Below are positions 2,117 through 7,028 of a stretch of 11,155 nucleotides of DNA, in pieces (position 1 is the stretch's first letter; the number at the start of each line of letters is the position of its first letter). The notes beneath the pieces were generated by a model, which saw nothing but the letters and a program-made list of their open reading frames with translations, was not told where the DNA came from and ran no database searches. Source of the DNA: a virus (Duplodnaviria; Heunggongvirae; Uroviricota; Caudoviricetes); the IMG/VR virus record IMGVR_UViG_2675903609_000003. The stretch is one strand, 5' to 3'. A program made the translations under genes and the position numbers.

Positions 2117-2425
2117 TTAAACGAAGCGGATCTGGAGTTTTTTTCCAGTAGCGCGGGCGAATTTTTTTAGTGTGGCAAATGATGGGCCGCTGATACCTGA
2201 TGCGAGATTACTTTCCATTCTGGTGATCGCGGTCGCTTTTGTTCCCATTCGCTCGGCAACTTCAGCCTGAGTTAAGCCAGCTTCTTTGCGTGCTGCCAGC
2301 ATTTCATCAAGCAGTGCGAATTCGTCAGCGATAGCGTCGTATTCTGCTTTAAAAGCCGGGTCTTCCATCCATTTGGCTGCCATTTCGTCGTGTGTCATGG
2401 TGGGGAGAGTGCGTTTACCAGTCAT
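2117..2425 (-). CDS. HTH (XRE-type) antitoxin, HigA-like addiction-module antidote
   Basis: 102 aa with HTH core GLTQAEVAERMGTKATAITRMESN; its ATG (2423-2425) overlaps the 3' end of the upstream toxin gene by 11 nt. Confidence 0.7.
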   Translation of the reverse strand: MTGKRTLPTMTHDEMAAKWMEDPAFKAEYDAIADEFALLDEMLAARKEAGLTQAEVAERMGTKATAITRMESNLASGISGPSFATLKKFARATGKKLQIRFV

Positions 2426-2744
2426 GCTTAACCTCCTTCATTCTGGTTTCAGCTTTCTTGCGTTCGGCTGGCGGTGTTTTCTGCGCTTTCTTTACAAAAC
2501 TATGCAGCATGATGATGCGTTTCCCTGTCAGAGTGCAGTAAAAAACACGCGCGATCCCATCGTTGCCTTTAATTCTGAGTTCGAAAAGCCCGTCACCAAA
2601 GGCGCTGGTGTGAGGTTCTCCGAGATTGCTGCCGTATACCTTCATGCGTTCAACAAGATGCTGGTATCTGGCACGCATACTCAATGGAAGCTGATCGACC
2701 TCCAGTCGGACCTCTTCACTGTAGTATTCGATAGTGTAGTTCAT
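2415..2744 (-). CDS. RelE/ParE-superfamily toxin, Gp49/HigB-like (addiction-module killer)
   Basis: 109 aa from ATG at 2742-2744 (minus strand). Motif LGEPHTSAFGDGLFELRIKGNDGIARVFYCTLTGKRIIMLHSF is typical of Gp49-like killers. Toxin-first, antitoxin-second order is HigBA-like. The 224-aa track ORF is judged an upstream frame extension. Confidence 0.7.
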   Translation of the reverse strand: MNYTIEYYSEEVRLEVDQLPLSMRARYQHLVERMKVYGSNLGEPHTSAFGDGLFELRIKGNDGIARVFYCTLTGKRIIMLHSFVKKAQKTPPAERKKAETRMKEVKHDW

Positions 2745-2873
2745 ACAGCAAAACATAACAAAATCGTTATATCTGCACAATATATTGATTCTGCAATTTC
2801 GGGACGTTACACTGTCTCTGCACCTTATAAAGCGGGGGCCGGGATTGGCGTCCTGAAATTCAATATAGAGCAT

Positions 2874-2895
2874 AACCGCGCTCATGCGGTTTTTT
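2874..2895 (+). terminator. hairpin plus T-run in the divergent intergenic region
   Basis: AACCGC-gctcat-GCGGTT followed by TTTTT on the plus strand; no annotated plus-strand gene upstream. Confidence 0.3.
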
Positions 2896-4751: not shown

Positions 4752-4761
4752 GGTGACAGCG

Positions 4762-5640
4762 ATGATGACGTTTAACCTGCGTGAACAACAAAAAAGACTA
4801 CAGGCGCGAATGGATGAGTTACGGGCAGAGATTGCATTTGCTCAGAAGGGCGAAAAGCCATGGCCTTATCGTTCCTGCCTGATGCGTGAAGGTCGCGGAT
4901 ATTGCGAAAAACATGGCGAATATCACACGCATATACTGGTGTGGAGCGATCGTAATGGCGAGGACAGAGAAGAAATTTCATGCTGCCCTGACTGCTTAAT
5001 CGCTGAGGCCAACGATTTGACCATGGAGCTGTCGTCCATCAAGGCGGAAGAGCTGACTGATAACGCCGGAATTGCCCTGCGTTTTCGGGACTGCGAGTTT
5101 GATAATTATCTGGAGGTTAATCCTGGCGCAGCCAGAAATCTTGCGGCCTGTCGCCGCTATGCGGAGAACTGGCCAGATATGCTGGAGAACGGTACCAGTC
5201 TTGTTATGACCGGCAGTTGTGGTACCGGAAAAAATCATCTGGCTGTGGCTATGGCAAAACACATCATCCGTAACTATCTGGCCAGTGTGGAGATCACCGA
5301 CGTGATGCGCCTTACCCGTGCTGTGAAAAATTGCTGGCGGAATGACAGCGAAAAAACAGCGGATGAAGTTATTGAGCGTTATGCGTCAATGGATTTGCTG
5401 ATCATCGACGAAGTTGGCGTTCAGTTTGGCAGCGCGGCTGAAATGGCTATTTTGCAGGAAATTATCAACGCCAGGTACGAAAGTATCTTGCCCACCATTC
5501 TGATCAGTAACCTCTCACCGGAAGAGTTGTGGGCGTTCATCAGTCCCCGAATTGCCGACAGGATCACAGACGGGGGACGCAACTGGTTGTCGTTTAACTG
5601 GCCCAGTTACCGTTCTCGTATCAGAGGTGTGGCTGCATGA
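4762..5640 (+). CDS. DnaC-like helicase loader (IstB-like AAA+ ATPase)
   Basis: Walker A GSCGTGKNHLA, Walker B LLIIDEVG, C-terminal FNWPSYRSR; all close to E. coli DnaC as I recall it. ATG 4762 with GAGGTG 6 nt upstream; ORF track starts at GTG 4753. Confidence 0.85.
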   Translation: MMTFNLREQQKRLQARMDELRAEIAFAQKGEKPWPYRSCLMREGRGYCEKHGEYHTHILVWSDRNGEDREEISCCPDCLIAEANDLTMELSSIKAEELTDNAGIALRFRDCEFDNYLEVNPGAARNLAACRRYAENWPDMLENGTSLVMTGSCGTGKNHLAVAMAKHIIRNYLASVEITDVMRLTRAVKNCWRNDSEKTADEVIERYASMDLLIIDEVGVQFGSAAEMAILQEIINARYESILPTILISNLSPEELWAFISPRIADRITDGGRNWLSFNWPSYRSRIRGVAA

Positions 5641-7028
5641 CAACTCCAGTATGGCGTAACGATGACCTTGAAGGCGCTGTCATCGGCGCGTTCTTTCTGC
5701 GCGGAGCAGATCCTGAAGTGATGGATATTCTGGCCACACTGCCAGCGGACGTTTTTTCTGTACGAGCGTATCAGGATATCTATACAGGCATCTGCAGACA
5801 GGCCCGTGTTTCAGGAGTGATTGACCCCGTGCTGTTGTGTAATGAGATGCCGGAACTTGCCCCGGTGATTACTGATACCGGGCGTAAAACCTGGGTGAAG
5901 TCTTCACTGGAGCACTATGTTGCAGCGTTGCGGCGCAATGCCGCACTGCGCGATGCAGAAAAAACACTGAATGAGGCGCTGCAGAAATTACGTGATGCGC
6001 ATACCTGTGAAGCAGCTGAAGATGCCCTGAAGGATGCGCAGAACATGATGGTCACACTGTCGACAGGAAAGGGCGTCATTCAGCCGGTACATATTGATGA
6101 TGTGCTTCCGGAAGTGGTTGAGCGTGTTGAATGCCGGAATCAGGGGCTGGAGAAATCCAGGACGTTGATGACCGGTATTGATGAACTGGACGCAAAAACA
6201 GGCGGTATGGAGCCCGGAGACCTGGTATTCATTGCCGCCCGTCCTTCGATGGGGAAAACCGAACTTGCGCTGGACATCATCGACAAGGTGACTGAGCAGG
6301 GGCATGGTGTGCTTCTGTTCACCATGGAGATGGCGAACATCCAGATTGGTGAACGTATGGTGTCTGCGGCTGGAGGGATGCCAGTATCACGCCTGAAATC
6401 TGTGGCTCACTTTGAAGATGAAGACTGGACGCGTTTCTCACAAGGGGTGGGGCGGATGACCGGGCGCAATATCTGGATGGTGGACCAGGCGAACCTGGCC
6501 ATTGATGAGATATGCGCAACAACGAAACACCACCTGATTAAATATCCGGAAACGGCGCTGGTGGTGGTTGATTATCTCGGGCTGATAAAAACCCGAACCA
6601 CGGGGCGTCATGACCTTGCCGTGGGTGAAATCTCAAAGGGGCTTAAAGGCCTGGCAAAATCCGGTGGTTTTCCGTTGATTGCGCTGAGCCAGCTCTCCCG
6701 CGGTGTGGAGTCCAGACCCAATAAACGTCCCATGAACTCAGACCTGAAAAATTCCGGAGAAATAGAGGCGGATGCAGACATCATTCTGATGCTTTACAGG
6801 GATGAAGTGTACAACCCGGATACGCAGGCCAGGGGCATCGCAGAAATCAATATCACGAAACAACGTAACGGTTCTCTGGGAACGATTTACCGGCGTTTTT
6901 ATAACGGACATTTTCTGCCTGTGGACCAGGAAAGTGCACGGGTGCTTTCCACTCCCATGAAGCCCGGCAATCCGCGCAGATACAGTAATAAACGAACTGA
7001 CAGCAGTAAGATGGAGCGTTTCTTTTGA
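5637..7028 (+). CDS. DnaB-family replicative helicase
   Basis: 463 aa; Walker A AARPSMGKTELAL, Walker B VVVDYLGL, LSQLSRGVESRPNKRPMNSDLKNSGEIEADADII; ATG overlaps the DnaC-like stop (ATGA). Confidence 0.9.
   Translation: MTTPVWRNDDLEGAVIGAFFLRGADPEVMDILATLPADVFSVRAYQDIYTGICRQARVSGVIDPVLLCNEMPELAPVITDTGRKTWVKSSLEHYVAALRRNAALRDAEKTLNEALQKLRDAHTCEAAEDALKDAQNMMVTLSTGKGVIQPVHIDDVLPEVVERVECRNQGLEKSRTLMTGIDELDAKTGGMEPGDLVFIAARPSMGKTELALDIIDKVTEQGHGVLLFTMEMANIQIGERMVSAAGGMPVSRLKSVAHFEDEDWTRFSQGVGRMTGRNIWMVDQANLAIDEICATTKHHLIKYPETALVVVDYLGLIKTRTTGRHDLAVGEISKGLKGLAKSGGFPLIALSQLSRGVESRPNKRPMNSDLKNSGEIEADADIILMLYRDEVYNPDTQARGIAEINITKQRNGSLGTIYRRFYNGHFLPVDQESARVLSTPMKPGNPRRYSNKRTDSSKMERFF

Follow-up and report, generated by a model that had tools for sequence, protein, structure and literature searches.

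The viral record IMGVR_UViG_2675903609_000003 is a stretch of 11,155 nucleotides, referred to here in its whole length as the window, that contains two replication modules, unlike in type and arranged in tandem, with a reverse-strand toxin–antitoxin (TA) cassette between them. Reading from the left, it holds the end of an insertion sequence (IS), the 3′ part of a toprim primase-helicase gene, ninB, ninE, the TA pair, a fused ash-rha pseudogene, genes for an initiator, a DnaC-like helicase loader and a DnaB-like helicase, ninH, the antiterminator gene Q, four tRNA genes and lysis genes (Table 1). Gene assignments were based on a listing of open reading frames (ORFs) together with Pfam, NCBIfam and PHROG profile scans, and by these means all of the genes named in an initial annotation of the sequence were recovered at or near the positions it gave. 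That annotation also viewed the arrangement as a mosaic product, which is upheld here, and placed a 5-kb block with two boundaries inside the nin region of one phage, a description that is replaced below by that of a single joint between two phages.

Table 1 Features of the window, in order of position (A and B denote the two parental prophage types described in the text).
Feature	Position	Strand	Basis
IS911 (IS3 family) right end, inserted in the primase-helicase gene	1–58		100% identity over 58 nt to L002 13440–13497, annotated IS911 end
3′ part of the A-type toprim primase-helicase gene	59–1142	+	PHROG 239 ‘DNA primase/helicase’
Terminator-like hairpin after the primase-helicase gene (‘tR2-like’)	1172–1195	+	8-pair stem, 6 G-C, then TTTTATTT; consensus match only
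phiTE_015-family small gene	1202–1495	+	PF26207 on the identical L007 gene; PHROG 343
ninB (parent A)	1492–1902	+	PF05772, 189.5 bits (cut-off 23.8)
ninE (parent A)	1899–2075	+	PF05322, 142.1 bits (cut-off 25)
TA cassette, present in both parental contexts, itself recombinant in the window	2089–2772	-	Alignment A1
XRE-type helix-turn-helix (HTH) antitoxin, intact	2117–2425	-	HTH_3 (PF01381), 43.5 bits
Gp49/HigB-like toxin (RelE/ParE superfamily), intact, chimeric	2415–2744	-	PF05973, 88 bits
Crossover interval, A × B homologous recombination	2593–2633		Last A-like informative site 2592, first B-like 2634
ash-rha fusion gene (parent B), pseudogene in the window	~2766–3626	+	Phage_ASH 49.1 bits, Phage_pRha 61.7 bits
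~65-nt segment common to the 5′ ends of ash and ash-rha genes	2782–2846	+	Three L002 copies: 4685–4755, 5345–5409, 6001–6065
orf77, conserved small gene upstream of the initiator	3623–3856	+	PHROG 1153; same position in L001, L002, L003, L006
Initiator / replisome-organiser-like gene	3837–4751	+	PHROG 270 ‘replication initiation protein’, E 4.9e-65
Candidate origin region in the linker-coding middle of the initiator gene	4166–4341		Repeat arrays
DnaC-like helicase loader, intact ORF	4753–5640	+	IstB_IS21 (PF01695), 57.7 bits (cut-off 24.1); PHROG 50 ‘DnaC-like helicase loader’, E 6.4e-90
DnaB-like replicative helicase, intact ORF	5637–7028	+	DnaB_C (PF03796), 243.5 bits; PF00772, 24.8 bits; both above cut-offs
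orf85, native neighbour of the DnaB-like gene in B-type phages	7025–7282	+	Same position in L001, L002, L003, L006
ninH (parent B)	7374–7577	+	PF06322, 91.3 bits (cut-off 29.8); contiguous with the B module in L002, L003
Antiterminator Q (parent B)	7570–7950 (alternative start 7534)	+	PF06530, 181.5 bits; 126 aa in relatives
Four tRNA genes, between Q and holin	8150–8460	+	CAT, Arg-TCT, Thr-TGT, Gly-TCC
Holin, 209-aa ORF, lysozyme, Rz-type lysis gene (interrupted by an N-run)	after 8460	+	ORF listing and family scans

Alignment of the window to a set of comparison prophages and contigs (loci L001–L033) distinguished two types of lambdoid prophage, one matching its left part (A-type) and the other its right part (B-type). 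In the A-type loci L004, L028 and L033, the gene order is cI, cro, cII, an HTH protein gene, the toprim primase-helicase gene, ninB, (dam), ninE, the reverse-strand TA pair, P22AR/ANT antirepressor genes, rusA, ninH and an antiterminator gene. The ninE gene is contiguous with the TA cassette in all three, and the window is 99.4% identical to L028/L033 over 59–1218 and 97.7% over 1899–2772, and 96.7% identical to L004 over 1884–2772. On the right, identity reaches 99.7% with L002 over 2782–9030, 98.6% with L003 over 2782–10264 and 99.7% with L021 over 2782–8460. L002 and L003 are prophages of E. coli (resembling enteroinvasive E. coli, EIEC) in which an immunity region is followed by Rha, orf77, the initiator, the DnaC-like and DnaB-like genes, orf85, ninH, Q, the tRNA genes and the lysis genes, and the B-type loci L017, L019, L021 and L023 show the order immunity, rha, DUF4222, TA, ash, ash-rha, orf77 and the initiator onward. 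The stretch from the TA cassette and ash-rha to Q is, in B-type prophages, a single replication-to-Q region adjoining immunity. In the E. coli prophages L005 and L006, too, the cassette has a DUF4222 gene on one side and ash/rha genes on the other. It stands upstream of ash/rha and a B-type replication module in both L006, where the module follows directly, and L021, and in L005 it is accompanied by two rha genes and then a different downstream region. A megablast search with the whole window against phages and E. coli genomes returned no record covering at least 80% of it.

The TA cassette is shared by both contexts, and its edges are given by the point at which homology to the B contexts L005, L006 and L021 begins (2089) and that at which homology to the A context L004 stops (2772). 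In a three-way alignment of the window with L004 as A context and L021 as B context (alignment A1), the window was A-like at 74 of the 75 informative sites at 2089–2592 and B-like at all 17 at 2593–2772, and all 27 informative sites from the toxin start to 2781 matched the TA/ash junction of B. Given this change from A-like to B-like sites between 2592 and 2634, the exchange took place within the 41-nt identical stretch 2593–2633 of the toxin gene. The same division is seen in the toxin protein, which is A-like towards its C-terminus and B-like towards its N-terminus. Together, the switch in informative sites and the presence of both parental contexts show a single crossover inside the toxin gene, and all carriers of the joint have one and the same junction.

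A breakpoint at 2773–2781, taken from the ends of BLAST matches, was rejected because the three-way alignment puts the parental switch at 2593–2633; the BLAST ends mark only the divergence of the A-type context from the TA/ash junction. A 40-mer over that junction (2761–2800) is present exactly in seven IMG/VR contigs, B-type ones among these, and an exact 61-mer across 2773–2781 had no match in a contig collection holding one genome per species.

The position of this crossover bears directly on the proposal that a single phage took up a 5-kb cassette (TA, rha, O-like, DnaC-like and DnaB-like genes) between ninE and ninH, either as an insertion in its nin region or in place of part of it. In favour of this, the block is indeed flanked by NinB/NinE and NinH/Q, and ninH also precedes its own Q-type gene in A-type nin regions (L026, L028 and L033). 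However, only one breakpoint was detected, and this sole switch of parentage falls within the toxin gene, away from 2076–2116, where the left boundary had been placed. The proposed right boundary at 7029–7040 falls within unbroken homology, B-type relatives being collinear with the window at 98.6–99.7% from 2782 past this point to 9030 or 10264, with the DnaB-like gene, orf85, ninH and Q as native neighbours. The nin genes that had been read as bracketing one nin region come from both parents, ninB and ninE being contiguous with A-type sequence and ninH with B-type sequence, and the Q of the window belongs to PF06530 as in B-type prophages, whereas the A-type antiterminator is PF03589. Nor do composition or repeats mark out a block, as G+C content stays at 0.45–0.54 in the GC and skew profile, with no step near 2076–2116 or 7029–7040, and no direct repeats flanking these positions were found. 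The TA pair, which had been counted among the cargo of the block, is instead the shared sequence in which the parents recombined, and insertion of a cassette into a single nin region is very unlikely.

Two further explanations would remove the need for a fusion of two phages. The first is that the primase-helicase, nin, TA, rha, O-like, DnaC-like and DnaB-like genes form an ancestral, single composite replication region, as might be expected from an arrangement that is widespread in one lineage: a toxin variant one residue away from that of the window (P0003), which is probably the ancestral recombinant form, is present on 365 contigs. However, each half serves elsewhere as the sole replication module, both in complete prophages and in isolated phages, the B half in those of the phiP27, Stx1_14040 and PhiR49_2 type and the A half in those of the 24B, Min27 and mEp043 type, and the sharp switch of parentage in the toxin gene is a signature of recombination, which makes an ancestral composite region highly improbable. 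The second is that a short-read assembler joined two prophages over a repeated TA cassette. The cassette is indeed a repeat found in several prophage contexts, and the window contains a run of N (10265–10371), but this run lies 7.6 kb from the joint, and the identical joint was recovered from at least five complete chromosomes (CP084879.1, which is 99.97% identical to the window, CP026871.1, CP026810.1, CP097831.1 and CP066809.1) and from dozens of independent assemblies, with many draft assemblies and IMG/VR contigs carrying it. The chance that the joint is an artefact of assembly is close to negligible.

The explanation that we favour, with a probability of roughly 0.87, is that one homologous crossover in the shared TA cassette fused an A-type left arm to a B-type right arm, and that the window is the joint of these two lambdoid prophage types, now a degraded remnant in Shigella flexneri. 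Parent A would have carried immunity genes, cII, an HTH protein gene, the toprim primase-helicase gene, ninB, ninE, the TA cassette, antirepressor genes, rusA and Q, while parent B, a phiP27-like phage, would have carried immunity genes, rha, DUF4222, the TA cassette, ash, ash-rha, orf77, the initiator, DnaC-like and DnaB-like genes, orf85, ninH, Q, tRNA genes and lysis genes. Both would have possessed the same reverse-strand cassette of ~0.7 kb, at ~90% identity, in non-equivalent map positions. An unequal homologous or homeologous crossover at 2593–2633, whether between phage and prophage or between two prophages, would then have produced a genome with the A replication genes and proximal nin region followed by ash-rha, the replication genes, ninH, Q and the late region of B. 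The replication genes precede the cassette in A but follow it in B, and for this reason an unequal exchange of this kind would have put both modules in tandem. Comparison of hybrid genomes suggests that later events included the loss of one ash gene via the ~65-nt 5′ repeat, the destruction by IS elements of the region upstream of the primase-helicase gene, the gain of a nonsense codon in rha and the entry of IS911 into the primase-helicase gene.

The same crossover in the TA cassette could also have taken place between two prophages resident in one chromosome, either in tandem or at separate sites, with a deletion or inversion as the outcome, in which case the tandem modules would never have been part of a packaged phage. 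Such an origin is consistent with the many lambdoid prophages and rearrangements in Shigella and EIEC genomes, with the occurrence of both parental types at separate loci within one E. coli genome, as in FDAARGOS_944 (H30 and H51), and with the finding that all of the hybrids seen are defective and IS-rich. However, the hybrid occupies a single locus in L025, L027, L029 and L032, in each of which the integrase is on the left (A) side and adjoins chromosomal genes, and in L025 B-type head genes stand at the opposite, right-hand end in matching orientation, positions that fit a single hybrid prophage. In addition, no reciprocal junction was present among the toxin variants listed, in a search that was not exhaustive. 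We think an exchange between resident prophages a good deal less probable than not.

Several observations weigh against fusion by one crossover as set out above. A single B-like site occurs among the 75 informative sites on the left, which may reflect mutation or a short conversion patch. The closest B-type TA cassette (L021) is ~90% identical to the A-like part of the window's cassette, as expected, and the immediate parents were not recovered. Furthermore, no B-type relative was found with the TA pair directly before ash-rha at high identity, and the ash loss may precede or postdate the fusion. Finally, none of the genomes examined yielded an intact hybrid whose A-type left arm was complete, so that a viable hybrid phage is hypothetical.

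A broader suggestion would be that portable TA cassettes at differing map positions are recurrent sites of ectopic recombination, and that the original hybrid was perhaps a viable phage with two replicons, whose spread through Shigella came before its decay. This we regard as unlikely. If it were true, unequal exchanges at TA cassettes would yield phages that transiently possess two complete and mechanistically different replication systems, one based on a primase-helicase and the other on an initiator with DnaC-like and DnaB-like proteins.

Within the cassette, the toxin gene (2744–2415) comes first and is followed by the antitoxin gene (2425–2117) with an 11-nt overlap, the architecture of HigBA-like type II TA systems. 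The exact antitoxin protein was found in 4960 blocks of the assembly collection, and the exact toxin protein of the window carries Shigella flexneri naming. Both genes are intact, and a promoter of the pair's own probably lies within 2745–2800. At 2088–2108, a G+C-rich inverted repeat (GCGCCGCCAGAATGACGGCGC) marks the left edge of the cassette. Alignment A1 shows it conserved in A and B contexts alike, and it may serve as a terminator belonging to the cassette or as a boundary element. On the opposite strand, a 276-codon ORF (2286–3116) is open antisense through the TA pair and in frame with ash-rha, and because of it gene callers start ash/rha inside the toxin gene in L005, L006 and L007.

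The adjoining gene, described in the initial annotation as rha, does match Phage_pRha but is an Ash-Rha fusion ORF, which in the window has lost its native ATG and contains an in-frame nonsense codon (TAG) at 3114–3116. This codon is CAG in L002, L021, L018 and L020, whereas the window shares TAG with most hybrid assemblies (L007–L014, L016 and L022). As the nonsense codon is absent from the hybrids L018 and L020, the mutation arose after the fusion. Relative to L021, one ash gene (~656 bp) is missing from the window, and a second switch, from ash copy to rha copy, was located at 2820–2846, the window being ash-like to 2819 and rha-like from 2847. Relatives differ in how many ash genes precede rha (one in L021, two in L002), and repeated homologous gain or loss of ash genes fits this variation in copy number. 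A second rha-like N-terminal fragment is found at 10918–11100 on the forward strand, downstream of the lysis genes and cut off near the end of the window; it has 97% identity to a region of L004 that includes a ‘Rha family transcriptional regulator’ gene.

On the A side, the helicase-like gene upstream of ninB is a replication gene, a primase-helicase, and not a member of a different functional class, which the initial annotation had named, together with an ancestral single-module gene order in related phages, as what would overturn its reading. Only the helicase part remains here, as IS911 cuts the gene at 58/59 and no single intact ORF joins toprim and helicase parts. The match of ORF 123–1142 to PHROG 239 (E 2e-57) spans profile positions 372–618 of 801 only, and AAA_25 scored 23.8 bits, under the 27-bit cut-off. 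In the window the A-type primase-helicase is a non-functional remnant and the A module is dead. The corresponding gene encodes 968 aa with Toprim_2 in L028 and L033, where it follows cII and an HTH_36 gene, and the L004 copy is 1881 bp. The longer relatives (760–968 aa) show LAGLIDADG / Hom_end_hint signals (L028 and L033, both 11042–13948; L029, 11284–13566; L027, 12759–15442), profile matches that suggest an intein in the phage primase-helicase. The matches of many independent short-read contigs (L008, L009, L012–L014, L025 and L031) begin at window positions 951–953, which suggests a repeat edge or an IS insertion inside the primase-helicase gene of those genomes near window 951.

Decay of the hybrids has been uneven. 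The IS911 insertion is found in only some of them and is missing in L016, L020, L029 and L032, where the primase-helicase gene runs on, reaching a 760-aa ORF in L029, and L029 and L032 keep an intact Ash-Rha fusion. None of the hybrid contigs long enough to judge had the full intact replication gene set of both modules, at least one replication gene being disrupted or no longer called, and the HTH initiator gene, the partner of the primase-helicase, was adjacent in no hybrid-bearing genome examined. The 11-kb remnant in the window is bounded by IS elements, with the IS911 end on the left and, as judged from the near-identical locus L007, the edge of another IS3-family element near ~11100–11155.

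The B module is better preserved. Its initiator gene had been proposed to be O-like with iterons of its own. The gene matches an initiator PHROG and contains repeat arrays, but membership in the lambda O family does not hold: no Pfam or NCBIfam match was obtained, hence the protein does not belong to PF04492 (Phage_rep_O), and its C-terminal half matches DnaD-like loader PHROGs. Its likeness to O lies in position and presumed role and does not extend to the protein family. The middle of the gene contains a 15-nt inverted repeat at 4171–4203, 23-nt × 2.7 tandem repeats with GGGAAA at 4220–4280 and A+T-rich 12-nt × 3.7 tandem repeats at 4295–4338, and by analogy with ori-lambda, which lies inside gene O, this region is a candidate replication origin. 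Against NCBIfam models, the DnaC-like protein scored 132.9 bits with NF005931 (DnaC), under the 357-bit cut-off, and the DnaB-like helicase scored 307.7 bits with TIGR00665, under the 385-bit cut-off, and also fell under the cut-off of TIGR03600; by its domain matches, the latter is a member of the DnaB family and not an equivalog. Although these ORFs are intact, they are probably not expressed as a phage replicon, because no early promoter remains upstream.

Further to the right, the first of the four tRNA genes (CAT) was called tRNA-Met by ARAGORN and tRNA-Ile by PGAP for the L002/L003 homologue, and is presumably the lysidine-modified Ile2. The run of N inside the Rz-type lysis gene is a scaffold gap, at which the complete chromosome CP084879.1 has only ~54 bp.

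Homology-driven mosaics between diverged lambdoid sequences have been demonstrated experimentally, with efficient recombination up to 22% divergence and exchanges promoted by Red-type recombinases, to which orf (ninB) and rap contribute (Martinsohn et al. 2008, PMC2327257; De Paepe et al. 2014, PMC3945230); a contribution of ninB (orf) to mosaicism was reported by De Paepe et al. (PMC3945230). The joint described here resembles these mosaics in that the exchange fell in a patch shared by diverged temperate phages, in that the ~10% divergence of the cassette lies within the 22% limit and in that the A side carries ninB (orf). In contrast to them, the shared patch occupies non-equivalent map positions, so that the exchange was unequal and duplicated a replication function instead of swapping alleles. 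Literature searches found no published description of this joint.

Each arm also has clear counterparts among known phages. The right arm follows the gene order of phiP27-like and Stx1-converting phages (Ant/Rha, small ORF, ‘O’, DnaC-like, DnaB-like, small ORF, Q), and megablast found window 2782–7286 to be collinear with Stx1_14040 (89%) and phiP27 (~93% over matched parts). Those phages, however, have no other replication module, and in them it follows the genes cI, cro and one for a DNA-binding protein, whereas in the window it comes after the primase-helicase, ninB, ninE and TA genes of another phage. Similarly, window 53–2076 matches phages of the 933W/24B/Min27/mEp043/Sf101 type, as well as many E. 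coli prophages, at 97–98.7% over the 3′ end of the primase-helicase gene, ninB and ninE, but only the C-terminal helicase part is retained in the window, the toprim/primase part being separated by IS911.

The TA pair itself appears, from gene order and family matches, to resemble the HigBA-type ‘moron’ cassettes of prophages, in which toxin-first, overlapping genes of PF05973 and PF01381 run in reverse to the phage operon, and phage PhiR5_2 has a homologous pair annotated HigB/HigA in its nin region. What sets the pair apart here is not toxin biology but the portable homology that it provides between two map positions. Annotators who meet a ‘second replication module in the nin region’ should accordingly take it as a fusion joint and not as an insertion. 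The locus shows the origin of a lambdoid mosaic at base-pair resolution, in which a small shared accessory cassette gave the homology and an unequal exchange stacked two replication modules, and it adds an example to ideas of accessory ‘moron’ cassettes as recombination linkers. As a phenomenon this is a known kind of phage mosaicism, of which the joint is a clean new example rather than a new system or mechanism.

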